Assembly: GCA_031546905.1 (NCBI GenBank)
Contig: JAVBJQ010000006.1
Span: 94,673-158,672, forward strand
Source of the DNA: Eubacteriales bacterium
GTDB lineage: Bacteria; Bacillota; Clostridia; Lachnospirales; JAVBJQ01
Direction of reading: 5' to 3'
DNA: 64,000 nt
The position numbers were made by a program, and so were the translations under genes. The notes beneath the pieces are model-generated. The model ran no database searches. It saw nothing but the letters and a program-made list of their open reading frames with translations, and was not told the DNA's origin. How positions within the stretch are numbered: the stretch's first letter is position 1; each line of letters starts with the position of its first letter. Below, piece after piece: positions 8,611 through 60,921 of this stretch.

Positions 8611-8661
8611 TCATAAAAAAAGTTATGCAGATAATGGTGATCTGCATAACTTTTTTTATGA
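8611..8661. terminator. bidirectional intrinsic terminator between convergent operons
   Basis: 21-nt arms (TCATAAAAAAAGTTATGCAGA and its exact reverse complement) with a 9-nt loop. An A-run precedes and a T-run follows. Confidence 0.75.
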
Positions 8662-9447
8662 TTTAAAATTTTCATAAGACAAATACATGGGCTTATTGGT
8701 TTTTTTATCTTCCACAATTTCCGCATCAATATTATAAATTAGTTTCATATTTTCTTTTGTAATTACTTTTTCCGGGGAGCCTTGGGCTACCACTTGTCCA
8801 TTTTTCATGCCAATCATACAATCTGCAAACCGAGAAGCATTGTTTAACTCGTGTAACACCATTACAATTGTTCTGCCTTGTTTTTTATTTAAGTCTGATA
8901 ACAAGGAAAGTACATCTAATTGATGTGACAAGTCTAAGTATGTGGTTGGCTCATCCAATAACATTAGTTCTGTTTTCTGGCAAAGTGCCATAGAAATCCA
9001 AGCTCGTTGCCTTTGACCGCCAGAAAGTTCTTCTAATAGCTTATCTTTATAATCGTAAATTCCTGCAATATGCAAGGACTCTTCAATAATTTCAAAATCT
9101 TGTTTATTTAAAGCACCAAATCCACGTTTGTGGGGAAACCGACCATAGGCAACCAACTCTGAAACTTTAAGACCAGTAGGAGCTTTTGGAGTTTGTGGCA
9201 GTACAGACATTTGTTTTGCTAGTTCAGCAGAACTAACGGAATAAATATTTTGTTGGTTTACCAATATTTGCCCACTTTGTGGCTTTAAAATACGGGCAAT
9301 GCTTTTTAATAAAGTAGATTTACCACAGCCATTGGCTCCAATAATTACCGTAACTTTTCCTTTGGGAATGGATATGTTCATGTTTTCAATAATGGTTCTA
9401 TCGGAATAACGGACTGTTAGATTTTTTGTAACAATACTATCCATCAA
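8656..9447 (-). CDS. iron-siderophore ABC transporter ATP-binding protein (FepC/FhuC type)
   Basis: Walker A GANGCGKST, signature LSGGQRQR and Walker B LLLDEPT. It is the last gene of the SBP-permease-permease-ATPase operon. Confidence 0.9.
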   Translation of the reverse strand: MMDSIVTKNLTVRYSDRTIIENMNISIPKGKVTVIIGANGCGKSTLLKSIARILKPQSGQILVNQQNIYSVSSAELAKQMSVLPQTPKAPTGLKVSELVAYGRFPHKRGFGALNKQDFEIIEESLHIAGIYDYKDKLLEELSGGQRQRAWISMALCQKTELMLLDEPTTYLDLSHQLDVLSLLSDLNKKQGRTIVMVLHELNNASRFADCMIGMKNGQVVAQGSPEKVITKENMKLIYNIDAEIVEDKKTNKPMYLSYENFKS

Positions 9448-9469
9448 AAATCAACCTCCTGCCAGCGTG

Positions 9470-10459
9470 CTATTGTTTTAAAATTAAATAAATAAAGTAT
9501 GGTACACCAATAATGGAAACAACAATGCCCAAATATAATTCAATGGGAGCAAAAAGATTTCTTGCAATCATATCGGCTACCACCACTAAAATCATGCCCA
9601 CCAACATGGCAATGATTAGTAACGATTTGTGCTTTGGTCCAACGAGGCGTCTTGCAATGTGGGGAGCAATTAGCCCTACAAAAGAAATACTACCAGCCAC
9701 AGAAGTTGCCGCACCAGCCAAAGCAACAGATAAAATAATAAGAGATAACCGCTGCTTTTCTACATGAATACCAAGTCCTAAGCAGGTTTCATCTCCTAAA
9801 TTAAAAGCATCTAAATACCGTGACTTGTACAAAGTAATGCCAGCTACAATTAAAATAATAGGGCAAACGGCAATAACATAATTCCAACTGCTTCCCCAAA
9901 TACTGCCAGAAGTCCACATTAGAATCCGGTTAAAATCTTTTATATTAAACTTGAGTTGCATTACAATAACCAAAGCAGAAAAAGCGGCGTTCACAGAAAT
10001 ACCCATTAACAAAATTCTGGTAGGGCTTACGCCTTTTTTCCAAGCCAATAAATAAACCAACATGGCGGCAAATACACCACCGCACATTGCAATAAATGGC
10101 ATGGTAAAAATGGACAACAAAGGCATACTATAATAGTTGTTGCCATTGGTCATGTAAATATAAACCACAACAAATAATGTTGCCCCTGCACTAATTCCTA
10201 AAATACCAGGCTCTGCTAAGTCATTGTGGGTTACACTTTGTAAAATAGTTCCCGAAAGGGCAAGTGCGCCACCAACAAGCATGGCAATAACAAGTCGTGG
10301 TAACCGTAAAGTAAACACGGCAATATTACTTTGGGCAGTGCCGTTCCCCATTAAAGTAGAAATAAATTCCAATGGGCTAATTGCCAATGTGCCCAAGTTC
10401 ATGCTTAAAAAAATGGCAGCTAATAAAATAATCATTAAAATACAAGCAACTTTTTTCAT
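9470..10459 (-). CDS. FecCD-family iron-siderophore ABC permease
   Basis: 329 aa, polytopic, with a typical FecCD pattern (LRLPR..., GIGLIAPHIAR-like segment). Confidence 0.9.
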   Translation of the reverse strand: MKKVACILMIILLAAIFLSMNLGTLAISPLEFISTLMGNGTAQSNIAVFTLRLPRLVIAMLVGGALALSGTILQSVTHNDLAEPGILGISAGATLFVVVYIYMTNGNNYYSMPLLSIFTMPFIAMCGGVFAAMLVYLLAWKKGVSPTRILLMGISVNAAFSALVIVMQLKFNIKDFNRILMWTSGSIWGSSWNYVIAVCPIILIVAGITLYKSRYLDAFNLGDETCLGLGIHVEKQRLSLIILSVALAGAATSVAGSISFVGLIAPHIARRLVGPKHKSLLIIAMLVGMILVVVADMIARNLFAPIELYLGIVVSIIGVPYFIYLILKQ

Positions 10460-11451
10460 GCTCTGCCACCTCTTCTCACTAAATAAACCAAAACAGGAAC
10501 GCCGATTAAAGAAGTGATAGAACCAACAGGAACTTCAAAAGGACTTGCTAAAACCCGAGCTAAAATATCACTGTACAAAAGCAAAACGCCGCCAAAAATC
10601 ATACAGACAGGAATAATTCGTTTATAATCAGTTCCCACGCAAAGTCTTACAATGTGGGGAACAATTAAACAAACAAAGCCAATATTGCCACCAACAGCGG
10701 CAGACGTTCCACTTAATACCACCACCACCATAAGGCTAAGCAGTCGTATTTTGTTTGGATTTTGACCTAGTCCAACGGCAGTTTCATCTCCTAGGCTTAA
10801 AATCATAATGTTGGGGGACAATCTAATAACAAAAAAAAGAATGAAAACAGAAACAATGGCTAACACAATAACAGAAGTCCAATTAGTAGCACTTAAACTG
10901 CCTGCAATCCAAAATCCTAAGTTTTTTGTGTTGTTGGTTAACAACGCAATCATAGAGGCAAGGGAAATAAAAAGAGTTCCCAAAGATGCCCCTGCTAAAA
11001 TCATGCGGTTTACATTCATACTGGATTTTTTCATGCTTAAAATAAAAATAAAAATAGCACTAATAGAAGCTCCGATAAATCCACAAAAAACTTTTCCCAT
11101 TGGCCCCGGAACAGGTTGAAACGCCATAAAAATAGAAACAGCCAAAGCCGCCCCTTGGGTAACACCCATAATAGACGGTGAGGCAATGGGGTTTGCTGTA
11201 ATTCCTTGTATAACAGCGCCAGAGGTTGCCAAAAAACAACCAATTAAAATAGCACAAATTGCCCGTGGCAACCGAATATCTTTTATAATTTGAGCATTTA
11301 CATTATTTGGGTCTTGGTGAAAAAAAGCATTGATAATATCCGTCAGTGGTATTTGATTTGCTCCAAAACTAATGGAGAGACATAGCCCAATTAAAATAAA
11401 AACAAGCCCCAATGCAATAAAATAAAATATTGAAATTCTTTTATAAGCCAT
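10456..11451 (-). CDS. FecCD-family iron-siderophore ABC permease
   Basis: 331 aa, paralogous to the neighbouring permease, with a 4-nt overlap with the downstream gene. Confidence 0.9.
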   Translation of the reverse strand: MAYKRISIFYFIALGLVFILIGLCLSISFGANQIPLTDIINAFFHQDPNNVNAQIIKDIRLPRAICAILIGCFLATSGAVIQGITANPIASPSIMGVTQGAALAVSIFMAFQPVPGPMGKVFCGFIGASISAIFIFILSMKKSSMNVNRMILAGASLGTLFISLASMIALLTNNTKNLGFWIAGSLSATNWTSVIVLAIVSVFILFFVIRLSPNIMILSLGDETAVGLGQNPNKIRLLSLMVVVVLSGTSAAVGGNIGFVCLIVPHIVRLCVGTDYKRIIPVCMIFGGVLLLYSDILARVLASPFEVPVGSITSLIGVPVLVYLVRRGGRA

Positions 11452-14818: not shown

Positions 14819-16603
14819 ATGAGATTAGTTAGTATTATGAAATATAGTGTTTTATTTTATGTTTTTAGTTTTATTGTTATTATTGGTGGGGGAATGTACC
14901 ACTATTTTGGACCTGTTAAGTATGATAATTTGATTACAGATACTTTTATGATTGTTACAATTTTGGTTTCCATAGTATCCATTATATTAATTTATTTTGT
15001 TTATAAAAGAATGAAATCATTAAACGAACTGGCAAAGGCAGCCAACAGTCTTTCAGAAGGTGAATTGGAAGTTTTTATTGATTACCGATTTGATAGCCAA
15101 GATGAAGTTGGTGAATTGGCAGTCAGCCTTACCTTATTAAGAGACACCTTGAAAAGAACGTTAACAGATATGGACAATTTATCCATACTGCACAATGATG
15201 GTTATATTTATCAAACCATTGATTCTTCTACTTATCGGGGTGTTTATCGTAAAGTAGCGGAAAGTACATCTGCCATGGTTGGTTCTTACGCACAAATGAT
15301 TGCAGAATTAACGGCTTGTTTAAGTGGATTTGCAGAAGGAAATTTTGATGTGAAACTGCAAGAGTACCCAGAAGAAAAAAATAAAATTAACCAGTCTGTG
15401 AAAGTGCTAGGGGACAACTTATCTAACATTAGCATAGAAATCAATAAACTTGTTGGCGCTGCCATTGCAGGCAATTTATCCGACAGAGCCAATGTAGCGG
15501 ATTTTAAAGGAGATTGGTCTAGCATCATACACCAACTAAACAATTTGTTGGAGACGGTCATTGAACCAATACAAGAATCTTCTTTGGTACTACAAGAAAT
15601 AGCAAAAGGGAATTTTAACATAGAAGTAAAAGGCAATTACCAAGGGGATTTTCTTCTTATTAAGGAAGCGCTAAATCATACCGTAAGAGAGATTTCAACT
15701 TATATTAAAGAAATTAGCAATGTGCTGATGGAACTTTCTCAGGATAATTTGGATCAACAAATAAAAAGAGAATACATTGGACAATTTGGTCAAATTAAGG
15801 AATCCTTAAATACGATTATTTTAAAACTAAATACGGTAATGAAAAAAATAAATAAGTCAGCGGATAAAGTTTCGTTAGATGCAAAACAAATATCAGAGCA
15901 AAGTAGTTTATTGGCGGGAGGGGTGGCAGAGCAAGAAAATGCCATTGAAAACCTTACAGTAGGAATTAATCATATTAACCAACAAGCCCATGACAATGCC
16001 ACTAGTGCAAAAAATGCAGAAGAGTTAGCCACTATTTTAAAAGTAAGCGCAGTAGAAGGCACAAAACAAATGAATGATATGGTGACTTCTATGGAAGCCA
16101 TTAGCACATCATCAGCCAATATTGCTGATATTATAAAAGTAATTGAAGATATTGCATTTCAAACAAATTTGCTTGCCTTAAACGCTTCGGTAGAAGCAGC
16201 AAGAGCAGGTCAACATGGAAAAGGGTTTGCTGTTGTAGCGGAAGAAGTTAAAAATCTTGCCACAAGAAGCCAAGAGGCAGTGAAAGCGTCCAGAAGTCTT
16301 ATTGAAAATTCTACAGTAAGGGTGAAGGAGGGTTCTGATACAGCTCATATTACAAACCGTGCACTGCAAGATATTGTAGCAAAAATAACCCAAGTATCAT
16401 CTATTATTGGTACCATCAATATTGCTTCTCTGAGCCAAACAGAATCCATATCCAACACAAGTTCTATTATAGGGAAAATTAATGATGTAGTAAAAAATAA
16501 TGCTACCATGTCCCAATCATCAGCAGGCGCATCACAGGAATTAGCCATTGAATCTGAAATGCTAAAAAACATGGTTGGTGTATTTACATTGAAAAAGGGA
16601 TAA
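14819..16603 (+). CDS. methyl-accepting chemotaxis protein with tandem HAMP-like repeats and no sizeable extracytoplasmic domain
   Basis: Two N-terminal TM helices separated by a few residues, repeated HAMP-like units ([16 protein letters not shown]) and a conserved MCP signalling hairpin ([32 protein letters not shown]). Confidence 0.9.
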
Positions 16604-16667: not shown

Positions 16668-16722
16668 TATTATTAAGATTTAACAATAGAGACAAGGAAA
16701 AAGTAAGACAGGGGTGTGTCAT

Positions 16723-17430
16723 ATGTTCATAAAAGAAGTAGAAGAAATAACAGGCATTACGGCTAAAAATATTCGATTTTATGAAAAAGAAGGACTGCTA
16801 ACACCAGAACGCAATGAACAAAATCAGTATCGAAATTATTCTGAAGAAGATATTCGAATATTGAAAGAAATTAAGCTACTGCGAAAATTTGATATTTCCC
16901 TACAAGATATAAAAAATATTCAAAGTGGAACTTTACCCCTTGGGGACTGTATGGAAAAATATATTTTGTTTTTATGTGAACGGAAAAATGAATTAGCCAA
17001 GGCCATTGAGTTATGCAAAGAAATTAAAAAGAATGAGTCTCAACTATCCAACATAAACGTTGATTTTTATTTAAATAAAATCAACGTCATGGAAATAAAA
17101 GGAATGAAGTTTGCAGATATTGCAAAGGATTTTATTACAAATGCAAAGGCTTTTTTTCCACCTACTATTCAACTATTTTTTGAACCCGAAAACCCCATAA
17201 CCAACAAAAGAGAATTTACCGACGAAATTTTTAGGCATGCCAATAAAAATAATTTGTCTGTAACTATTTTACATGAAGGAATGGAACCAGTTATATGGTT
17301 AGAGGGAAAAAGATATTATTGTATGCTAGGAGTTCCAAGGATGATTAACGTGCCATTTCTCCCGTTTTTTATGGCAAGTCCATTTGCATTTAAATGGGTA
17401 TACTTTTATGAAGATAAGTACCCAGAATAA
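16723..17430 (+). CDS. MerR-family transcriptional regulator
   Basis: N-terminus MFIKEVEEITGITAKNIRFYEKEGLL is a canonical MerR HTH. The ATG at 16723 is better placed behind AGGGGTG than the one at 16714. Confidence 0.8.
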   Translation: MFIKEVEEITGITAKNIRFYEKEGLLTPERNEQNQYRNYSEEDIRILKEIKLLRKFDISLQDIKNIQSGTLPLGDCMEKYILFLCERKNELAKAIELCKEIKKNESQLSNINVDFYLNKINVMEIKGMKFADIAKDFITNAKAFFPPTIQLFFEPENPITNKREFTDEIFRHANKNNLSVTILHEGMEPVIWLEGKRYYCMLGVPRMINVPFLPFFMASPFAFKWVYFYEDKYPE

Positions 17431-17489
17431 AAAAATATGAATAATACTTTATCAATGGGGAGAAAATGGAGATGATACCATAGAAAACA

Positions 17490-18857
17490 TTGAAAAGGAA
17501 AAATAATGAAAGAGGTGTTACTATTAGTAAAATTGTTGTAGTTGGGTCAAATCATGCAGGTACAGCGGCAATTAATACATTAAGAAGTACTTGTCCTGAA
17601 AATGAAGTGGTGGTTTTTGACAAAAACTCTAATATTAGTTTTTTAGGGTGTGGCATGGCACTTTGGATTGGGGAACAAATTAGTTCTGGCGAGGGGCTTT
17701 TTTATTCAGACAAACAAAAACTAGAAGCAGCAGGTGCAAAAGTAAACATTGAAGCAGAAGTAAAAAAAGTAGATTTTAAAGGAAAAAAATTATATGCTAC
17801 GTTAAAAGATGGTAGTGAAGTAGTGGAAAGTTATGATAAATTAATTTTAGCCACAGGCTCATTGCCAATTGTTCCTGATGTTCCTGGGAAAGAACTAGAA
17901 AATGTGCAACTGGTAAAATTATATCAAAATGCACAAGATGTCATTGAAAAACTAAAAGATACCAGCCTAAAGAATATTACAATAGTTGGTGCTGGGTACA
18001 TTGGTGTAGAACTTGCAGAAGCATTTCAAAGAAAAGGCAAGTCTGTTACTGTAATTGATTTGGTGGATACTTGCCTTGCAAATTATTATGATAAACCGTT
18101 TACCGACAACATGAATGAGAATTTAAAAAATCATGGCATAAAACTTTGTTATGGAGAACGTTTGTTAGAAATCAAAGGAAATAAAAAAGTGGAAGCTGTC
18201 ATAACAGATAAAGGGGAACATCCTTCTGACATGGTTATTTTATGTATTGGCTTTCGACCAAATAACCTGCTTGGAAAAGAGGACATTTCTTTATTTAAAA
18301 ATGGCGCATACCTTGTTAACAAGCGACAAGAAACCAGTATAAAAGATGTGTATGCCATTGGAGATTGTGCAACAGTATATGACAATACCATTGAAGATAC
18401 CAATTATATCGCACTGGCGACCAATGCGGTTCGTAGTGGACTGGTAGCAGCTTATAACGCTTCTGGTGTAGATGTAGAAAGCATAGGTGTTCAAGGCTCT
18501 AATGGAATTTGTATTTATGATTATAAAATGGTTTCTACAGGCATCACCATGGAAAAAGCAAAAGCGTTGGGTATGGATGTAGACTGCGTTGATTATGAAG
18601 ATTATCAAAAACCACAATTTATAGAAGCTGAAAACCAAAAAGTAAAAATTAGAATTGTGTACGACAAAAAATCAAGGCGAATAGTAGGAACTCAAATAGC
18701 ATCTGTACATGACATTTCCATGGGAATCCATCTGTTTTCTCTGGCAATTCAAGAAAAAGTGACAATTGATCGATTAAAATTGTTGGATATCTTTTTCTTG
18801 CCACATTTTAACCAACCTTATAATTATATTACCATGGCGGCATTAAGTGCAAAATAA
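17490..18857 (+). CDS. FAD-dependent pyridine-nucleotide-disulfide oxidoreductase (NADH oxidase / CoA-disulfide reductase family)
   Basis: [12 protein letters not shown] motif, redox-active Cys in [10 protein letters not shown], and a second dinucleotide fold [10 protein letters not shown]. The start codon is ambiguous (TTG 17490, or ATT 17523 behind AGAGGTG). Confidence 0.85.
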
Positions 18858-18900: not shown

Positions 18901-18938
18901 AAGAAGCTGATTTCTGAATTAACAGGAGTCAGCTTCTT
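18901..18938 (+). terminator. hairpin after the oxidoreductase gene
   Basis: AAGAAGCTGA (18901-18910) pairs with TCAGCTTCTT (18929-18938) and is followed by TTAAATTT. Confidence 0.45.
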
Positions 18939-19086
18939 TAAATTTGCCCTACTCGATTTTCCTTACTATCTTTATGTTCTAGATTGACCATGGTATAATA
19001 TAGTTAGATAAGATTATTACAAACAATTATAAGACAGAATCACGATATTATATAAATAGGTTATATATTTGGAAGGATGACGTGTT

Positions 19087-20076
19087 ATGAGACTTTCTAT
19101 TAAAGACCTGTATAAACAAAAAGGAAAAGATATTCTCATTAGGGATATGAACTTAGAAATTAATGCTGGCGAAGGAATTAGTCTACATTCTGATATGGCC
19201 CATATAGAAGCTCTGTTCAGTTTACTTTCTAAGGTAGACATCCCATCTAACGGTACAATAGAAGGTGACTACATTGATGGACTACATTGGATTAGGTTAG
19301 ATGACGGAATATTTGATTTTATGACGGTAAAGCAATATTTAAAATTTTTTACAAAGCTTACGTTGAGTCAGGTGTCTGTTAACGATACTTGTTTAAATAT
19401 GTCGTTAAATGATGTGTCTTCAAGAAAAATCAAATTATTGTCCATTACACAAAAAATTCGTGTGCAGTTGGCAAGGGTTTTTTTATTAAGCCCTAAGTTA
19501 ATACTATTTGAAATCCCTCTTAACACGGAGGATTATATTCTAGATAAACTACTGCAAGTAAGCTTTGAATATCTTTATCAAAATGGTGTATCAATCATTT
19601 TTCATTCACAGCACATGGACAATCTAAAAACCATGGTTTACGATATTTATAAGTTAAACGGAGACGGATTTGTAAAGTATGCTCCTGAAATAGTTGAGCA
19701 TATTGTTTATATTGAGCAACCACAAGATGTTTTACCCAAAATAAATGTTTACAAAATACCTTGTAAAGCCGAGGGTAAAGTTATTTTATTTAATCCTTTT
19801 GAAATAGATTACATAGAAAGTATTGAGTCTACGTGTCACCTTCATGTACTTAGCAAAATATACCCATCCCATCTTACAATATCTGAATTGGAAACAAGAC
19901 TCACACCTTATGGATTTTTTCGTTGCCATAGATCATATATAGTCAACCTCCAAAGCGTTCAGGAAGTGATAACCTATTCAAAAAGTAGTGTTGTCCTTGC
20001 TATAAAAAACAATACGGATCAAGTCCCTCTTTCCCGTTCTAAAATGGATGAGTTTAAAAAAATAATGGATATATAA
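19087..20076 (+). CDS. degenerate ABC-ATPase-like domain fused to a LytTR DNA-binding domain
   Basis: The C-terminus is LytTR (FFRCHRSYIVNLQSV...VPLSRSK). The N-terminal ~200 aa keep ABC NBD order but with degraded motifs: Walker A GEGISLHSDMAH, signature LSITQKIRVQLAR, Walker B LILFEIP, H-loop FHSQH. Confidence 0.75.
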   Translation: MRLSIKDLYKQKGKDILIRDMNLEINAGEGISLHSDMAHIEALFSLLSKVDIPSNGTIEGDYIDGLHWIRLDDGIFDFMTVKQYLKFFTKLTLSQVSVNDTCLNMSLNDVSSRKIKLLSITQKIRVQLARVFLLSPKLILFEIPLNTEDYILDKLLQVSFEYLYQNGVSIIFHSQHMDNLKTMVYDIYKLNGDGFVKYAPEIVEHIVYIEQPQDVLPKINVYKIPCKAEGKVILFNPFEIDYIESIESTCHLHVLSKIYPSHLTISELETRLTPYGFFRCHRSYIVNLQSVQEVITYSKSSVVLAIKNNTDQVPLSRSKMDEFKKIMDI

Positions 20077-20121
20077 GTACTTCCTTAAATTTGAAAAGGA
20101 GCAACTTAGGTTTTATTTGGA

Positions 20122-20151
20122 ACACCTCAGTTCAAATCTGGAACAACTCAG
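20122..20151 (+). promoter_or_regulatory. LytTR-type operator: two 9-bp direct repeats with a 12-bp spacer
   Basis: ACACCTCAG (20122-20130) and ACAACTCAG (20143-20151), giving a 21-bp period. The extended repeat TGGAACAnCTCAG matches 12/13. It resembles the ComE box aCAnTTcaG. Confidence 0.5.
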
Positions 20152-20327
20152 CCCAACCTTGAAGCAAATTAAATGATTAGCTCACAGAGTACTCTGCTTT
20201 TACGTAGACACTGGGGTAAATATACCCGCAAAAAAACAGGACTGAGTCGCAACTGGGTATGGAAAAGGTTCATTTCGGCCCTTTTTTGTTGTATTCCGCA
20301 TACGCCGTAGTTATACTGTGATTATAA

Positions 20328-20477
20328 GTTTTGAAGAACGGTGGGAGGTGTCATATTCCTGAAAGTGCTGATATGGTGGCAGACTTAATTAGAAATGAAA
20401 ATTTGGCTTCTATTCACTCAACGGAGCCGAGTCTCGAAGAGGTGTTCCTATCGATAACGGGGAGGTCCTTAGAATGA
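20328..20477 (+). pseudogene. 3' remnant of an ABC transporter ATP-binding protein gene
   Basis: The frame is open only from 20328 and encodes ...ADLIRNENLASIHSTEPSLEEVFLSITGRSLE*, the typical C-terminus of ABC-2 type ATPases. The TGA overlaps the permease ATG (ATGA). No Walker or signature region lies upstream. Confidence 0.6.
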
Positions 20478-21181
20478 AAGTTTCTTTACGAAAAGTAAAA
20501 GCAATAGTTTTTAAGCAGCTTCAAGTTAGCATTAAAAATCTTAATATTTTATCATTAATACTATTTACTCCGTTGTTTTGCCTTCTTATGGTTTTGTTTC
20601 TTCCTTTTAAGGTTGAATCACCAAAGATATTTGTTTTGGCTTTAGGTTCGATTATGAATATTATGATGGCAGGTAGTATGATGGTGTGTTATGTAATGGC
20701 CGAAGATAAGGAAAAAAATACACTTAGGTTGCTAATGACCTCTACTGTGACACCAATGGAATACTTGCTGGGAACCGGGTTTGCATCATTTATTGCCACA
20801 ATGCTGATTAGTCTCTTGCTTATAGTTATTACGGGAGCTAAGGTGGGTATCTTGGGTTATATAGCTATTACTGCCTTTACTGGTATCATAGGAATTGTTG
20901 TAGGCGCAGTCATAGGTATCTTGAGTAAAGATCAGTTGAGTGCTTCGATGATAGGTGTACCATTTTTAATGTTATTCCTCCTACTACCTATTCTTGCTTC
21001 ATTTAATAAAGGGGTAATGGCCATCTCTAACTTTGTTTTTTCACAGCAACTTTATAGTAATGTGACTATGAGTCCAGATAATTCAATAACATTAACAAGT
21101 GCAATTATATTAACGTTAAACTTAGTTGTTGCTATAGGGTTGTTCGTGTTTATTTACCAAAAAAGAAAATTAGATAAGTAA
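20474..21181 (+). CDS. ABC-2 type transporter permease (6 TM)
   Basis: 235 aa with six hydrophobic segments, translationally coupled to the ATPase remnant. Confidence 0.75.
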   Translation: MKVSLRKVKAIVFKQLQVSIKNLNILSLILFTPLFCLLMVLFLPFKVESPKIFVLALGSIMNIMMAGSMMVCYVMAEDKEKNTLRLLMTSTVTPMEYLLGTGFASFIATMLISLLLIVITGAKVGILGYIAITAFTGIIGIVVGAVIGILSKDQLSASMIGVPFLMLFLLLPILASFNKGVMAISNFVFSQQLYSNVTMSPDNSITLTSAIILTLNLVVAIGLFVFIYQKRKLDK

Positions 21182-21211
21182 TTTGTTCATTTAAAGCTGG
21201 AGTTGATTACT

Positions 21212-21577
21212 ATGTTTCAAAATGACTATTTGTTACGCCAAATTGAGACAATGGCGAAAGCTTTGGCGTCAACACTATTAAATAAAAGTTTTATCAACGA
21301 AGATGGACAAGAAAATGATAATATTATCATTAATGAGGAAGATTTCATTGAGTATATATTTAATAAATTGATTGCAGAAGAAAAGATCAATGAGGCTGAA
21401 AATATGCTCTATGATAAAATACTTACTGTCAAGAGTGAAAAGAATCTTAACCTAGCTTTATTGTTTTATAGTAACCTAAGTAGGCAAGATGATGAAAGAT
21501 TAATAAAACTTAATTTCACACGAGAAGAAATAGCCCAAGGTTTACAGGAAATAGAAGAAATGATAAGAACGCTATGA
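21212..21577 (+). CDS. small soluble protein of unknown function (DUF6483-like)
   Basis: MFQNDYLLRQIETMAKAL...INEAENML...FYSNL...REEIAQGL resembles a family I recall as DUF6483. The ATG at 21212 lies behind GGAG. Confidence 0.4.
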   Translation: MFQNDYLLRQIETMAKALASTLLNKSFINEDGQENDNIIINEEDFIEYIFNKLIAEEKINEAENMLYDKILTVKSEKNLNLALLFYSNLSRQDDERLIKLNFTREEIAQGLQEIEEMIRTL

Positions 21578-21723: not shown

Positions 21724-21782
21724 AAAATAGTGCCTATAGAATAAACACTTTTTTCTTGTGTTTATTCTATAGGCACTATTTT
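21724..21782. terminator. 25-bp perfect hairpin between convergent genes
   Basis: 21724-21748 (AAAATAGTGCCTATAGAATAAACAC) is the exact reverse complement of 21758-21782, with a 9-nt T-rich loop. Confidence 0.7.
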
Positions 21783-21833: not shown

Positions 21834-22922
21834 TCATGGGTGTTTATCCTTGGGTGGTAAAGAATCAACTCCCATGACTTTTATACTACTAATACCACTT
21901 TTCATAATACATTTTCTTAAAAAAGGATTATACATAAATGGGGTTTTTAAAAATTTAAGCATAAGCTTTATGCTAGTGGGCAAAGATTTTATGCTATATT
22001 TGGATGCAGGCTTTTTTTCACAGGTATTTAATATGGTGGCCAATTCATATGCGCTGTTTAGTGCATAACTAATTCCTTCCAGTGAAGAGGGGCTAATATA
22101 TCCCCCTGCTTCCCCTACCAAAAAGGCGTTATCTTTGCCGGCACAAAAGTCACTTATTTTTTTGGGCATAGAAACCAAGCAAGCTTCTGTCTTGATAGGC
22201 TGGTCAAAAGAATAACCGCATTTGCTTAACTTTTTTTTCAGCAGTTCAAATTTTTCTTTTCCGTGCTTTCGGGGGAAGGCACCACCCAATATAAAAAAAC
22301 CGTCTTTGGAGATGCTCCAGCAATAGGAGTCTGTAATATCACTATCAAAAATACAGGAATAAAAGGGTGTTGGATGGAGTTCCGAAAACCACTGCTGTAT
22401 GCTAATGTATTGTTGAATTTTTTTATTGGGAAATAGAAGCTTCCTTACGATGGAGTTTGACCCATCTGCGCCTACTACCCGCTTTGCTTTTATAATATGT
22501 TCCACTTGATTGGCAACATAAGTAATTTCATAGATGTCCGCCACCTTACGAATATTGGTGCATACCCCATTATCGATTATTTCAACCCCTTTGGGAATAA
22601 GGGATTTAAGCCACAAATCGAACTTATGGCGGTCAAGATTAACGTAATGTCTTTGATAAAATCGCAAAAGGTTTTGTTTCGTATCAATGGTTTTAACAGC
22701 AAAAATTTGGGGATCTGCCAGCACCTGCTTTGGTAGCGTTAAGTTGAACTTTGACAATGCCTTTTGTGCATCGGAAGCAAGCAGTCCACCGCAAGGTTTT
22801 TGAAATCCGTTGCTGTCAGCGGTGCTTTTTTTATCAATAGCGATAATACTAAATTTCTCGCTTAGCATCCGAGCAATTGTTGACCCAGCAGGGCCAAGTC
22901 CAATGATTGCAATGTCATACAA
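21834..22922 (-). CDS. FAD-dependent oxidoreductase (geranylgeranyl-reductase-like family)
   Basis: N-terminal MYDIAIIGLGPAGSTIA dinucleotide fold, GADGSNS and GEAGG motifs. RBS AAGGAGGTG. Confidence 0.8.
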   Translation of the reverse strand: MYDIAIIGLGPAGSTIARMLSEKFSIIAIDKKSTADSNGFQKPCGGLLASDAQKALSKFNLTLPKQVLADPQIFAVKTIDTKQNLLRFYQRHYVNLDRHKFDLWLKSLIPKGVEIIDNGVCTNIRKVADIYEITYVANQVEHIIKAKRVVGADGSNSIVRKLLFPNKKIQQYISIQQWFSELHPTPFYSCIFDSDITDSYCWSISKDGFFILGGAFPRKHGKEKFELLKKKLSKCGYSFDQPIKTEACLVSMPKKISDFCAGKDNAFLVGEAGGYISPSSLEGISYALNSAYELATILNTCEKKPASKYSIKSLPTSIKLMLKFLKTPFMYNPFLRKCIMKSGISSIKVMGVDSLPPKDKHP

Positions 22923-23209: not shown

Positions 23210-24496
23210 CTAGATTTCTAATTTTAATTGATTCCATGGGCTATACGGATTTTGATAGACATAGCAACAAGCTTTTAGGGCGTCCGTATAAGCTGATTTA
23301 TTCCAGTTGTAAACACCTACTAAATAGCTTTCTACAAAATCATCATAATTTTTAAAGCAAGTTATAAAATAATCATAGGACTTATCTAACAGTTGGTGTA
23401 CCTCATCTATGTTTGTTATATAATCACTGGCAAAGCCATTCTTCACTAGATTTACATATCTTGCAATATTGAAGCCAACCAATGTCTTGACATTTGGATA
23501 TAAATGTTTTAAATCATTTAGTTGATTCATATTAAAATGATGATTCCTTGTATGTAAAAGGGATTCTAAATGGTAAATTAAATCTCTTTTCGATTGTATG
23601 CCCCAATCGTTTAAAAGCATATCCTTTGCAGCTTTTTTTAATTCATTGCGGACTAATTTGGGACTACGACTTGCTAAATCATCTAAACTATAAAAAATTT
23701 CAGTTTGAAAAGAGCGCATATTGTGTTGATACGGTAGTAAATCTTTGGTACGACAGTAAATATCATAAGCACTTTCAGAAAAAACATATCTAGCACCACA
23801 GCCCAGCATAAAAATATATTTTTTATCAGCGGGAGTACATTCTAACTGAAGGCGATGATACTCCTGTATATCAAATTTCAAAGTAGACTTACCCCCGCTT
23901 GCTCTAGCTTCTGCTAAGGTTATTTCTGGAAGTTGATGAAGGGGCATGGTCAAATACTTTGCATATAAGTAAAAAGTTTCTGGATTTTTTTTATAAAGCA
24001 AATCTAATTTTTCACCTAAATAGTGCTTGAAAATACAAGTTTCAAAAACAGCATAGCTAAAATCGTATATTTTTTCTCTTTCTGCTTCATTTTTCCCAAA
24101 GTTAATTGAATAGTAATGTCCTTCATAGTCACAGTACACAAGTTTGTTTTTTATACCCATCATACTATAGGTAGTCGTTTTATAAACCCAAACTATTTTC
24201 CATGTATCGTCCATGATATTTAATATTTTTTTAAAATTGTAAAATTCTCTAACGTCACCTAGTCCTCCGCTTTTGACAAAAAAACCTAAAAATAAAGCAA
24301 TGGAAAATCCTCCAATTTTTAAATATAAATCAACCAGTGTTCCACCAACCATTGCAACGTAAATAAATAAACTTAGAAAGATAACACCTACTATAAACAA
24401 AATCGTAGATATACCTAACACAATGATAAAAAACTTATTTTTCTTTGAGACATAATGATTAAATTCCATTTTCAAATAATTTAACTCTGGATTCAT
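23210..24496 (-). CDS. membrane protein with C-terminal DUF1266-like domain
   Basis: Two to three N-terminal TM helices. The C-terminal pattern WGIQSKRDLIYHLESLL...ARYVNLVKNGFASDYI...ESYLVGVYNW resembles DUF1266. RBS AAGAGG. Confidence 0.45.
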   Translation of the reverse strand: MNPELNYLKMEFNHYVSKKNKFFIIVLGISTILFIVGVIFLSLFIYVAMVGGTLVDLYLKIGGFSIALFLGFFVKSGGLGDVREFYNFKKILNIMDDTWKIVWVYKTTTYSMMGIKNKLVYCDYEGHYYSINFGKNEAEREKIYDFSYAVFETCIFKHYLGEKLDLLYKKNPETFYLYAKYLTMPLHQLPEITLAEARASGGKSTLKFDIQEYHRLQLECTPADKKYIFMLGCGARYVFSESAYDIYCRTKDLLPYQHNMRSFQTEIFYSLDDLASRSPKLVRNELKKAAKDMLLNDWGIQSKRDLIYHLESLLHTRNHHFNMNQLNDLKHLYPNVKTLVGFNIARYVNLVKNGFASDYITNIDEVHQLLDKSYDYFITCFKNYDDFVESYLVGVYNWNKSAYTDALKACCYVYQNPYSPWNQLKLEI

Positions 24497-57796: not shown

Positions 57797-59656
57797 TTAA
57801 AATCCATTTTGAAGGAGCCAATTTTTTGTATTTTCACAGCTGTCTAAATTAAAGGAATTATAACCGCTGGTTGGTATGTCAGACTTTAGTTCCACATGAC
57901 CATAAAGCGCGTAACCTTCTTTGGTAACAGGTTCACCTTGGTTAATTTGACTTAAACGGTACTGTTCAGATTTTAAAATGTCTTTTTCCATTTCTGTTAT
58001 AATAGAACGAATTTGTTCGGGTTTTTCAATAAAAATGGGGCTTGCTTGACTATTATCCGCCTTTTGAGAATCAATTACGATTTTCCTAATGTTTTCAGGA
58101 GATTTAAAAGAATGATAAGGCGATAAAATGACTTGGTTTGTCAAAAGCAAGGTAGATAAACCAGATTCTTTTGATAAAGCAAGTGGTACAATATAACGCC
58201 TTAAAACAATTTTTTCGTTTTTCAACTTATACAAAAAGTATTGTCTGCTAACCGAACCATATTTTTCAGTATCAAGTCTACCGGATAAGTTTTGTAAAAA
58301 TACACGTCTTAAGGTAGCTTTGTTACCAATAATTTGTTTTTGAATGGCAATGGCATCAGCAATAATTTGTTTGTCTTCAATAAAAAAATTATCTTTAAAA
58401 GATTTGTTGTCTAAACCGCCAAAGTAGTCGTTGGGGTAGTTTAAATACACACCAGTAACATCATCTGGGTTTGGCGTATAGCGAGAATAACCAGTTAAAT
58501 CAAATTTGGTTACTAGAATAATAAGCAAAAATAAACCGATAGCTACGCCACCAAATCGAATTAAATCACGAGCCTTGCTAACAAACACATTGAAGGATTT
58601 TTCAGCTATCATTTGTGCAATAAAGTAGGCAACAATAAAGCCGATAACAAAACCAACGTACATAAATGTTATGCTATCGATTGTATCTAAGAAAAATAAT
58701 CCAAGCAAAATCATTCCCACTAAGGATATGGAAAAGGTCAACGCATTTTTTAATGGTGTAAATACAACCGAGTCCCCTGCTCGTTCTTGCTTTCTCTTAT
58801 GATTAAGGTAGAAGCACAACGCAAATAAAGCAATAATAATAAGCATATGAACCAGGATGTAGGGAATTAAATTGCTTGGCACTCTAGCCTGTGGCGTAAG
58901 ATGAAACAACAAGCCCAACAATATGGGGTTCGTATAAATGGCTAATTGACTTAACAAATTTGAGATATTATTAGGCTCAAAACCAAAGCAAAAATAAAAT
59001 CCAATCATTTGTGTAAGGAAAAGTAGCGCAGAAGGAATAAAAGGAAAAACAACACTAACCAATATATAGATAATGGCATTGCCTGAAACAATAGCAGCTA
59101 CCAAAAATATAGCATAGTAAAATACGAATACCAAAAGTGTTCGAAAGAAAAATCCAGCTACAATAGGAAGGCTATTGAGAATAGTACCTTCTTGTATGCC
59201 ATTGGGAAATAATTCAATAGGAGGAGAAATGGTTAACGCATAAGATGCGCCATTACTTATTTCACTCCTTATCCATTCTATGGGCATCAGTAAAAAACCG
59301 CAAAGAATAAGAAGAGGAATGACAATGAGAATAAACCCAGTAAACACATTGGTAAGCAATAACTGATTTTTACTAATGGGAAAAGCGTGTATAGCAGTAG
59401 TTGCTTTTGGTTGAAACAAATAAGAAAAAGTAACAAGCACCGTAACCAAAGGAACTAAAATACTTGCCCCAATCATAACGGGATGTTGCATGGAAAACAA
59501 GGTAGTCAATTCTTCTAATGAATGGTAGGTATTATAGTTCATTAAAAAAATAGGAAGGATAATTAATAAAATATATCCCAAAAGTGTGAGTACACCAAGT
59601 GACCAAAATCGTTTCAATTGTTCTTTTAATAAAGCAGAATTAATAAGGGATTTCAT
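57797..59656 (-). CDS. large polytopic membrane protein, putative permease of the YtrA-type ABC system
   Basis: 619 aa with about 10 TM segments plus a C-terminal soluble domain. Its start overlaps the ATPase stop by 17 nt. Confidence 0.6.
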   Translation of the reverse strand: MKSLINSALLKEQLKRFWSLGVLTLLGYILLIILPIFLMNYNTYHSLEELTTLFSMQHPVMIGASILVPLVTVLVTFSYLFQPKATTAIHAFPISKNQLLLTNVFTGFILIVIPLLILCGFLLMPIEWIRSEISNGASYALTISPPIELFPNGIQEGTILNSLPIVAGFFFRTLLVFVFYYAIFLVAAIVSGNAIIYILVSVVFPFIPSALLFLTQMIGFYFCFGFEPNNISNLLSQLAIYTNPILLGLLFHLTPQARVPSNLIPYILVHMLIIIALFALCFYLNHKRKQERAGDSVVFTPLKNALTFSISLVGMILLGLFFLDTIDSITFMYVGFVIGFIVAYFIAQMIAEKSFNVFVSKARDLIRFGGVAIGLFLLIILVTKFDLTGYSRYTPNPDDVTGVYLNYPNDYFGGLDNKSFKDNFFIEDKQIIADAIAIQKQIIGNKATLRRVFLQNLSGRLDTEKYGSVSRQYFLYKLKNEKIVLRRYIVPLALSKESGLSTLLLTNQVILSPYHSFKSPENIRKIVIDSQKADNSQASPIFIEKPEQIRSIITEMEKDILKSEQYRLSQINQGEPVTKEGYALYGHVELKSDIPTSGYNSFNLDSCENTKNWLLQNGF

Positions 59657-60536
59657 TCATTTCGCCCTCCGTTTCGTAGATAAAGATTTCTTCAAGGGTT
59701 AGTGGCAAAAGGTCGTAAACCAAAGGGCTCAAACTTTTTATTTGTGTTAAAATATCAGCTTCTTTGCCTCTAATAATTAACAATTCCACACTACCTCGTT
59801 TTTCCATGTGTAATATATTTAAGTTACCATATTTCTCAACTCCGAGGGGGTTATCCAAGGCAAAGGCAACTTGTACTTTATGCACATCAGATTTCAAATC
59901 ATCTAAATCACGTTCAATAATCATTTGTCCGTTTTTCATAATTCCAATAGAGTCGCAAATTCCTTCCATTTCCTTTAAATTATGAGAGGATACCAGTACG
60001 GTTAATTGACGGTTGGCAACATCGTCCACAATTTGTTGCATTACTAGTTTTCTAACAACAGGGTCAAGACCGTCTATTGGTTCATCTAGCAACAATACGT
60101 CAGGCATGATGGACATGGCAAAAATAAAAGCAGCTTGTTTTTGCATACCTTTTGAAAACTTACTTAATTTGCGACGTTCATCCAACTTAAATAACTTTAA
60201 TAGGGTATTAAATCGTTCATCGCTCCAATTTTTATACATACCTTTGTAAAAGCCTTTTAGAGACTTAATAGAATAATTTGGGAAGAAATACAAATCATCC
60301 GAAATATAACCTACTCTTTCTTTTATGGAAACATCATCATAAACAGGCTTATTGTCTATCAGAAGCATTCCCTCGTCTTGTCGATACACTCCTGCCAAAT
60401 GTTTAATAATAGTTGTCTTACCAGCGCCATTGATACCAACTAGCCCATAAATAGATCCTTTTTTAATGTTTAAATTCAGATTATGAAGGGCAACAAATCC
60501 ATCAAAGGTTTTGGACAACTTTTCAATTTTTATCAT
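59640..60536 (-). CDS. ABC transporter ATP-binding protein
   Basis: Walker A GINGAGKTT, signature FSKGMQKQ, Walker B LLLDEPIDGLD. Confidence 0.9.
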   Translation of the reverse strand: MIKIEKLSKTFDGFVALHNLNLNIKKGSIYGLVGINGAGKTTIIKHLAGVYRQDEGMLLIDNKPVYDDVSIKERVGYISDDLYFFPNYSIKSLKGFYKGMYKNWSDERFNTLLKLFKLDERRKLSKFSKGMQKQAAFIFAMSIMPDVLLLDEPIDGLDPVVRKLVMQQIVDDVANRQLTVLVSSHNLKEMEGICDSIGIMKNGQMIIERDLDDLKSDVHKVQVAFALDNPLGVEKYGNLNILHMEKRGSVELLIIRGKEADILTQIKSLSPLVYDLLPLTLEEIFIYETEGEMNEIPY

Positions 60537-60921
60537 CTATTTTTCCTCCTTCCGTGGGATTCACACATTCATTTGTCATAAAATCAATAATATTATTTTT
60601 GGATTCTCCCAAAAACATCAGTTCTTGGACAACCGTTTTTAAATTATTATAAATTAATTGTATTTCCTTTGCTGTTACATCAGTTGGTGGTGCAGAAATA
60701 AAATTGCCCTGACCAAGAACCGTATAAAAGTAACCTTGATTTTCTAATTCTCGATATGCTTTTTGAATCGTATTGGGATTTACGGTTAAGGTTTTAGCCA
60801 TATCCCGAATGGATGGAACTTTTTCATTTTCTTTTAATACACCCGTGGTAATTAAGCGTTTGAAATTATCCGTTACTTGCTCGTATATTGCTTTTCTACT
60901 TTTTAAATCAATCTGAAACAT
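60523..60921 (-). CDS. GntR-family (YtrA subfamily) transcriptional regulator
   Basis: KAIYEQVTDNFKRLITTGVLKENEKVPSIRDMAKTLTVNPNTIQKAYRELENQGY, with a short C-terminus typical of YtrA. Confidence 0.85.
   Translation of the reverse strand: MFQIDLKSRKAIYEQVTDNFKRLITTGVLKENEKVPSIRDMAKTLTVNPNTIQKAYRELENQGYFYTVLGQGNFISAPPTDVTAKEIQLIYNNLKTVVQELMFLGESKNNIIDFMTNECVNPTEGGKIDDKN

Follow-up and report, generated by a model that had tools for sequence, protein, structure and literature searches.

A LytTR regulator carrying an apparently dead ABC ATPase domain, beside a transporter that has probably lost its own ATPase

We analysed a 64-kb stretch of a contig from a member of the Eubacteriales (JAVBJQ010000006.1; hereafter ‘the window’, in whose positions all coordinates are given). 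It contains a gene for a protein that joins a degraded nucleotide-binding domain (NBD) of the ATP-binding cassette (ABC) type to a LytTR DNA-binding domain. Downstream on the same strand lie a set of short direct repeats, the truncated end of an ABC ATPase gene, an ABC-2 permease gene and a gene for a small soluble protein (Table 1). This order of fusion, remnant, overlapping permease and small protein, first set out in a first-pass annotation made from the letters alone, agrees with both the open reading frame (ORF) map and the sequence. The gap from the regulator gene to the permease gene measures 397 bp, and its final 147 bp belong to a 48-codon ORF (20331–20477), the visible part of the ATPase remnant. 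The permease ATG overlaps the TGA of this remnant as ATGA, and the permease has its own GGGGAGG Shine–Dalgarno sequence.

The LytTR domain that had been recognized by eye at the C terminus of the fusion is readily found by Pfam: PF04397 matches residues 231–327 with 82.9 bits against a cut-off of 22.6 (E = 2e-23), covering profile positions 2–97 of 98. A Pfam and NCBIfam scan of the fusion gave no Response_reg match, and the BtsR and LytR models cover the C-terminal 110 residues only. The regulator has no membrane segment, and the ORF map shows no histidine kinase gene adjacent to it. At the N terminus, Pfam ABC_tran (PF00005) reaches 20.4 bits, under its cut-off of 25 (E = 8e-4), and the NCBIfam CcmA model matches residues 3–175 at 1.6e-11. 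The match to ABC_tran, the comparison proposed in the first-pass annotation, is weak. A family profile built from the fusion and 34 homologues matched ABC NBDs in the PDB, with ABCA3 at 1.7e-38 and MalK at 7e-22. The AlphaFold2 (AF2) model of the fusion has a mean pLDDT of 86.8, and its sole disordered stretch, residues 204–218, falls between the two domains. The predicted N-terminal domain has the RecA-like core and helical subdomain of the NBD fold, and Foldseek aligns it with the NBDs of LptB and MalK (E ~1e-15, root-mean-square deviation ~3 Å over 216–221 columns).

The catalytic motifs were placed in register by a joint alignment of the fusion with the ATPases encoded beside its homologues. 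At the position of Walker A, GxxGxGK[ST], the fusion reads GEGISLHSDMAH; in the joint alignment the ATPase P-loop FGFLGPSGSGKTT stands opposite IS-LHSDMAHIEA, with a one-residue deletion. Walker B reads LILF-E142-I143, where E142 takes the place of the Asp and I143 that of the catalytic Glu, and the signature reads LSITQ instead of LSGGQ. The earlier description of a degraded NBD, with Walker A, Walker B and signature all decayed, thus holds, and its fold is now seen by profile, AF2 and Foldseek alike. Its one exception, an H-loop-like FHSQH thought to be kept, is out of register: the His column is occupied by Q175, which H173 and H176 only flank. By both sequence and model, the fusion thus begins with a true NBD that is catalytically dead; we refer to this domain as the pseudo-NBD.

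A protein database search returned 948 matches, and our statements on homologous proteins rest on the best 120 of these. All 120 are full-length, two-domain proteins with 29–35% identity (E down to 3e-49), and they come from Bacillus relatives, Sporosarcina, Exiguobacterium, Clostridium and others. It had been suggested that the window copy would be simply a mutated pseudogene if homologues kept a functional Walker A and B. They do nothing of the kind: GxxGxGK[ST] is present in the fused domain of none of the best 120 of the 948 homologues, and at none of 85 homologous loci. The family consensus instead has a P-loop region reading G..VAIHSS.NVR..L, the signature LSxSEKRR, a Walker B and D-loop reading hhhEEPDQNxD, in which hhhEEP carries a D-to-E change, and an H-loop reading TGNMES, with S, G or N at the H-loop position. 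The window fusion has the same order of two domains and the same dead P-loop. On these comparisons, the dead ATPase state is a selected feature of the whole family, not decay of the window copy. A block, GLYERLTV, located after the Q-loop, is common to the fused domain and the adjoining ATPases in the joint alignment, suggesting that the pseudo-NBD began as a duplicate of the pump’s ATPase and is a paralogue of it. About a thousand sequence clusters make up the family, spread over Bacillus relatives, clostridia, lactobacilli and enterococci. Its combination of PF00005 and PF04397 is present in precomputed Pfam annotations, and NCBI names its members either ‘LytTR family transcriptional regulator DNA-binding domain-containing protein’ or ‘ABC transporter ATP-binding protein’.

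Nearly all homologues share one gene order. We collected 88 loci from context look-ups and a scan of one genome per species; counts out of 85 refer to loci L001–L085. In 80 of these 85, the regulator gene is followed, after a gap of 60–480 bp, by a Walker-A ATPase gene (~281–300 residues) and then by an ABC-2 permease gene, whose start usually overlaps the ATPase stop by 4 nt. In the other five, the ATPase is frameshifted (two loci), the contig ends, the genes are rearranged or the permease went undetected (one locus each). At L086 and L087, which encode two of the top-scoring homologues (P0006 and P0007), an intact Walker-A ATPase likewise lies between regulator and permease. The cognate ATPase of the homologous loci scores with the drrA model TIGR01188 (5.8e-71) and has a DrrA C-terminal domain. 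At L014 (Metabacillus niabensis) and L058 (Domibacillus epiphyticus), it is split into two ORFs; these splits may be frameshifts or sequencing errors, and they might be further independent inactivations of the ATPase.

Between the regulator gene and the transporter genes lies an array of direct repeats. The LytTR-style repeat reported in the window had two units, and we extend it to four, GGAGCAACTTAG at 20098, GGAACACCTCAG at 20119, GGAACAACTCAG at 20140 and GAAGCAAATTAA at 20161, in an exact 21-bp register, with a possible weak fifth unit starting at 20182. In the window, lag 21 gives an autocorrelation of 0.51 and lag 42 one of 0.40. Two of the units match except at 1 of 12 positions; the paired repeat occurs nowhere else in the window, and shuffled sequence is expected to contain none. 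A 21-bp-period array directly 3′ of the regulator gene is a property of the family: over the 125 nt 3′ of the regulator stop at 80 non-redundant loci, the autocorrelation is 0.37, 0.34 and 0.31 at lags 21, 42 and 63, against 0.28–0.30 in the control upstream of the regulator gene. A position weight matrix (PWM) with the consensus G[CT]TCCATTCA.C finds 200 sites downstream of the regulator and a phased pair at 59 of the 80 loci, against 3–19 sites and no pairs in each of five control regions; these counts are inflated because the PWM was trained on the same downstream regions, a bias of which the autocorrelation is free. The controls included the region upstream of the regulator (either strand), the inside of the gene and the opposite strand of the downstream region. 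Adjacent sites are spaced by 21 bp in 99 cases and by 20–22 bp in 129 of ~160, usually with 2–5 sites per locus. Within 250 nt upstream of the regulator genes, no phased operator pair was found at any of the 80 loci.

A spacing of 21 bp, two helical turns, keeps the sites on the same side of the helix. In homologues, a −35-like hexamer (TTTACG/TTAATG) lies ~19 nt from the start of the last strong site, and a −10-like hexamer follows at about +44. Activators are expected to bind next to the −35 element, and those of the LytTR type typically do so. Comparison of the loci shows that the pseudo-NBD–LytTR protein is encoded directly 5′ of a DrrA-like ATPase and an ABC-2 permease, and that phased sites stand only ahead of those genes. 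The repeats are therefore predicted to be a conserved, family-wide operator of the LytTR type ahead of the ATPase promoter. Many loci, including L045 (6083–6180) and L010 (5990–6090), have five units in unbroken 21-bp register from the first base after the regulator stop; such arrays are unusually long for a LytTR protein and suggest cooperative loading of at least four protomers.

The window departs from this scheme in the gene that follows the operator, where there is no intact Walker-A, DrrA-like ATPase. The first-pass annotation had read the last ~50 codons of a genuine ABC ATPase here, and tblastn agrees, placing residues ~232–282 of 82 cognate ATPases on 20328–20474 (best E = 7.5e-12). 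The remnant itself gives weak matches to DrrA1-3_C and TIGR01188, and two in-frame stops lie directly 5′ of it. What is missing amounts to ~230 codons (~0.7 kb), the whole catalytic core of the ATPase. A tblastn search of 20077–20327 with word size 2 and E up to 100 found no convincing further ATPase fragment upstream of ~20328. A small ORF at 20173–20310 has no similarity to anything and is probably spurious. The region 20173–20330 has no repeat elsewhere in the window that would mark it as the scar of a mobile element, and as an RNA it has no Rfam match and folds unremarkably (z 0.0). Native promoter and leader sequence is the best reading of this region. A strong Shine–Dalgarno-like GGGAGG also lies within the remnant (20343–20357), 6 nt 5′ of an in-frame ATT; it could be due to chance or could direct translation of a short peptide that keeps the permease translationally coupled.

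Compared with the 85 loci, L086 and L087, the loss of the ATPase is a deletion seen in the window only. If the putative regulated promoter is correctly placed, the deletion would extend from near the ATPase start codon, expected at ~20290–20310, to codon ~231, and the transcript now under the control of the regulator would comprise the leader, the remnant, the permease gene and the DUF6483 gene. The statement that the window has no intact NBD for this permease stands in so far as none is cognate; two other intact ABC ATPases do exist in the window (8656–9447 and 59640–60536). Each lies within its own operon, a FecCD importer and a GntR–ABC module, so that neither is cognate to the permease and both were rejected as substitutes for the lost ATPase, although some cross-talk may occur.

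These comparisons bear directly on the model first proposed for the locus, in which the pseudo-NBD has replaced the lost ATPase on the permease and the ATPase-less pair has evolved into a ligand or occupancy sensor. Such a pair would fit with regulator and permease ORFs that are intact and not excessively diverged, an operator in exact register, and a permease that retains its own Shine–Dalgarno sequence and its ATGA overlap. We nevertheless regard the model as very unlikely, because the pseudo-NBD is dead at all 85 loci while a full Walker-A ATPase is kept at 80, no other locus is without its ATPase in the manner of the window, and a remnant with in-frame stops is what a deletion leaves behind, not a designed gene. 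Since the pseudo-NBD coexists with a real ATPase in homologous loci, it did not evolve as the stand-in for a lost one. Neither the substitution ‘in place of the lost NBD’, which was to be checked in the neighbourhoods of homologues, nor a purpose-built ATPase-less sensor finds support there. The alternative that had been offered alongside, a decaying locus, is the better reading for the ATPase remnant, with its deletion and in-frame stops.

The permease is another matter. It is homologous to the permeases of 84 loci (phmmer) and overlaps the ATPase stop as they usually do. Its Pfam matches, ABC2_membrane_3 (8.6e-7) and ABC2_membrane (6.3e-6), are both slightly under cut-off, and no NCBIfam model matches it. 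The ORF confirms the description of an intact gene with an ATGA overlap, and out of 31 conserved columns the permease deviates at only 6, a count that falls inside the range of the family. To gauge divergence, we compared the window with family pairs whose LytTR identity is 43–53%, that is, as diverged as the window’s. The mean identity of the N-terminal domain is 26.1% for the window and 24.6 ± 3.7% for the matched pairs; that of the permease is 26.9% and 23.1 ± 3.0%, respectively. Accelerated decay of the window regulator or permease was rejected accordingly, as their divergence is within the expectation for the lineage. By these sequence measures there is no clear sign of relaxed selection: if the deletion is not recent, the genes that remain must still be in use.

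We conclude that the locus is probably a divergent, damaged copy of a three-gene module that is common in the Bacillota, in which a LytTR regulator with a dead NBD controls a pump and from which the pump’s own ATPase has been deleted. The first part of this module would be a one-component transcription factor. Its input domain, an old paralogue of the ABC ATPase encoded next to it, would no longer bind or hydrolyse ATP, and a flexible linker joins it to the LytTR domain. The second and third parts would be the DrrA-like ABC ATPase and a six-helix ABC-2 permease translationally coupled to it. Site geometry suggests that the regulator is an activator of the pump genes and that several of its protomers bind along the same side of the helix. 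The pseudo-NBD keeps its fold and sheds every catalytic motif, and has thus probably been retained for the protein contacts of an NBD. Such contacts may be with the permease, whose coupling helix would fit into a groove of the NBD, or with the real ATPase, through the head-to-tail interface of paired NBDs, and the state or occupancy of the pump would then set the amount of regulator that is free for DNA. A role of the pseudo-NBD in talking to the transporter is, in our inference, the most economical idea. With the ATPase gone, the pump in the window cannot be energised by an ATPase of its own and the module is broken, although regulator and permease still look intact.

Several points weigh against this explanation, in addition to the inflation of the PWM counts noted above. 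The window repeats (GGAACAMCTCAG) fit the family consensus at ~6 of 11 positions, in keeping with a LytTR domain that is ~48% identical to the family, and the predicted promoter hexamers of the window are weak (4 of 6 positions each) and absent from the output of the consensus scan. The regulator deviates at 10 of 57 family-conserved columns, the highest count of any member (the next has 8), and selection on it may have relaxed somewhat. An ATPase for the permease could lie beyond the 64-kb window. The choice of activator over repressor follows from the position of the sites only. Co-variation between the pseudo-NBD and the cognate ATPase within genomes, taken as a proxy for a shared docking partner, gave a cluster at residues 90–92 and 101–104, in the helical subdomain, under global permutation; the cluster disappeared under clade-restricted permutation, which left scattered columns, and co-variation was rejected as evidence.

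Some of these points would also be expected if the whole module were junk, with regulator and permease surviving as relics of the ATPase loss that have not yet accumulated stop codons. The deleted ATPase core, the deviation of the regulator at family-conserved positions and the weak hexamers all fit that idea, as do catalytic-site remnants that are more degraded than the family consensus (I143 for E, T147 for N). Both ORFs, however, run to full length, AF2 models each domain of the regulator with confidence, the divergence of each domain matches the distance of the lineage, and operator units that differ at 1 of 12 positions remain in exact 21-bp phase. We consider this reading somewhat unlikely; it overlaps with the explanation preferred here, that of a damaged module, and differs from it only on whether the regulator still acts.

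A second set of alternatives concerns what the pseudo-NBD does where the module is whole. One specific form of the contact proposed above makes the dead NBD a decoy, which competes or pairs with the real ATPase on the permease, such that occupancy or turnover of the transporter sets how much regulator is free for the 21-bp-phased operator. We offer this version tentatively and put it short of an even chance. If it were true, the family would represent a previously undescribed class of transporter-coupled one-component signalling, and the window a natural ATPase knock-out. A serious rival, if on balance an unlikely one, holds that the pseudo-NBD never touches the transporter and is a cytoplasmic domain for ligand binding and/or dimerisation that switches the LytTR domain as ordinary one-component regulators do, sensing for example the pump substrate, or a nucleotide in a remodelled pocket. 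A stand-alone sensor would suit the natural role of NBDs in dimerisation, the moderate conservation across the family of the signature-like LSxSEKRR and of the D-loop-like NxD, a regulator free of membrane segments, and the lack of any co-variation with the cognate ATPase after clade control. Such a sensor is harder to reconcile with the loss of the P-loop, the main nucleotide contact, in every member examined, and no ligand is known. The domain is also a paralogue of the very ATPase that is regulated and always encoded beside it, for which retained partner contacts are the simplest account.

The closest described systems are the LytTR regulatory systems (LRS) of Streptococcus mutans, comprising HdrRM, BrsRM and the ABC-linked SMU_433/434 and SMU_1070c/1069c (PMC6193735). 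Their regulators are small, stand-alone LytTR proteins that are autoregulatory and are inhibited by a membrane protein encoded downstream (DUF3021 or DUF2154); some LRS are encoded beside ABC transporter genes and co-conserved with them, and most occur in Firmicutes (PMC6193735). The family described here likewise consists of receiver-less LytTR regulators outside two-component signalling, mostly in Firmicutes, and control by a membrane partner, known in LRS, is proposed here. It differs in that the regulator carries a fused pseudo-NBD of 200 residues, and in that no DUF3021 or DUF2154 gene follows, the next genes being the ATPase (or its remnant) and the ABC-2 permease. LRS are autoregulatory. 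The operator sites found here are ahead of the transporter genes only, with no phased pair within 250 nt 5′ of the regulator at the 80 loci, but autoregulation may still occur by read-through or through other sites.

A second resemblance is to response regulators of the AgrA, ComE and PlnC type, which share the LytTR fold and 21-bp-period direct repeats beside the −35 element. Targets of these proteins have ~9-bp repeats separated by a 12-bp spacer, next to the −35 of the activated promoter. Unlike them, the regulators described here have no receiver, phospho-acceptor or nearby kinase gene, and the family operator often has 3–5 units rather than 2. The idea that the state of a transporter is reported by contact has precedents in MalK, which sequesters MalT in Escherichia coli, and in flux sensing by BceAB–BceS in Bacillus. 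The likeness is in concept only: in those cases an active subunit contacts a separate regulator or kinase, whereas in the family described here a dead ATPase copy is built into the regulator.

The transporter genes of the homologous loci resemble ABC-2 exporters of the DrrAB and NodIJ type, with an ATPase that scores as drrA and a permease of six transmembrane helices that overlaps the ATPase stop; in the window, unlike in those exporters, the ATPase is cut to 48 codons, and the permease has no NCBIfam model. Degenerate sites are also known within heterodimeric ABC proteins such as TM287/288, CFTR and TAP, where ATP is still bound through an intact P-loop and the degenerate NBD is part of the transporter. 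The pseudo-NBD is similar in having kept the NBD fold and lost catalytic residues, and different in that its P-loop is absent and it is fused to a transcription factor. A full-text search found no paper on a fusion of an ABC ATPase with LytTR, the 2002 paper that defined LytTR being outside its reach. We describe the family as a new, uncharacterised variant of transporter-linked LytTR regulation, of which the window locus is a broken member.

Bacteria must match the number of their export pumps to demand, and few of the solutions are understood, among them flux sensing of the Bce type and the MalK–MalT pair. In the family described here, a dead copy of the pump ATPase is part of the regulator and a well-defined operator stands ahead of the pump genes, which makes a simple design that can be tested. 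As a basis for experiments, our comparison yields a consensus for the binding site, a phasing rule and the gene order that is conserved. The window locus itself is a pump without a motor, and should be annotated as a disrupted module and not as a new kind of ATPase-less sensor.

Table 1. Coordinates of the features of the regulator–transporter locus and its borders, in window positions.
Feature	Position	Strand	Basis
Terminator hairpin 3′ of the NADH-oxidase gene	18901–18938	+	-23.2 kcal/mol, z -4.7, U-rich tract next to it
Putative constitutive promoter, extended −10-like TGgTATAAT	18991–18999	+	Read from sequence; 88 nt 5′ of regulator start
LytTR fusion ORF, 329 residues	19087–20076	+	ORF map and sequence
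Pseudo-NBD, residues 1–203 of the fusion (predicted ABC ATPase fold)	19087–19695	+	Profiles, alignment, AF2, Foldseek
Flexible linker, residues 204–218	19696–19740	+	AF2 pLDDT <50; variable in length and acidic in homologues
LytTR DNA-binding domain, residues ~219–329, with stop codon	19741–20076	+	Pfam PF04397; invariant FFRCHRSY.VN motif
Operator array, four direct-repeat units in 21-bp register (predicted)	20098–20172	+	Autocorrelation; family arrays
Putative regulated promoter: −35-like TTTACG, 16-nt spacer, −10-like TATACC	20199–20204 (−35), 20221–20226 (−10)	+	Analogy with homologues
Remnant of cognate DrrA-like ATPase (last ~50 codons, C-terminal domain)	20328–20477	+	tblastn, in-frame stops
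ABC-2 permease, 235 residues, intact	20474–21181	+	ORF map, Pfam, phmmer
DUF6483 protein, 124 residues	21203–21577	+	Pfam PF20092, 5.9e-28
Bidirectional terminator closing the unit	21724–21782	.	25-bp stem, -41.4 kcal/mol, z -10.3

The borders of the unit are marked by two terminators. The hairpin after the NADH-oxidase gene indicates that the regulator gene is a separate transcription unit. At the other end, the inverted repeat is a perfect 25 bp flanked by A and U runs, and it is common to a convergent gene for a FAD-dependent oxidoreductase (21834–22922). The DUF6483 gene begins 21 nt after the permease and ends before this terminator, a position from which it is probably co-transcribed with the permease. 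DUF6483 was rejected as a component of the module: a DUF6483 gene was found at 1 of the 85 loci only, in Clostridium muellerianum (L079), ~2 kb away.

The two other ABC ATPases of the window belong to recognizable gene sets. The ATPase at 8656–9447 (−) forms an importer of the iron-siderophore type with two FecCD permeases (8656–11451, −). That at 59640–60536 (298 residues) stands in a string of overlapping genes at 57797–60921 (−), together with a GntR-family regulator (132 residues) and a 619-residue protein without a Pfam match. This string is a YtrA-like regulator-plus-ABC module, and so a second arrangement of a regulator beside a pump in the window.

The host appears to belong to a sparsely covered part of the Clostridia. 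The closest database relatives of the NADH oxidase have at most 76% identity (Clostridiales and Oscillospiraceae metagenome-assembled genomes), with Peptostreptococcus at ~71%, which indicates an under-sampled Clostridia lineage. The protein clusters are singletons in the databases, where no close relatives were found. This NADH oxidase is an H2O-forming NADH oxidase-like flavoprotein, whose gene lies directly 3′ of one for a MerR-family regulator (16714–18857, +). A methyl-accepting chemotaxis protein with several HAMP and HAMP_2 units (14819–16603, +) and a membrane-anchored DUF1266 protein of 428 residues (23210–24496, −) are also encoded nearby and are unrelated to the module.

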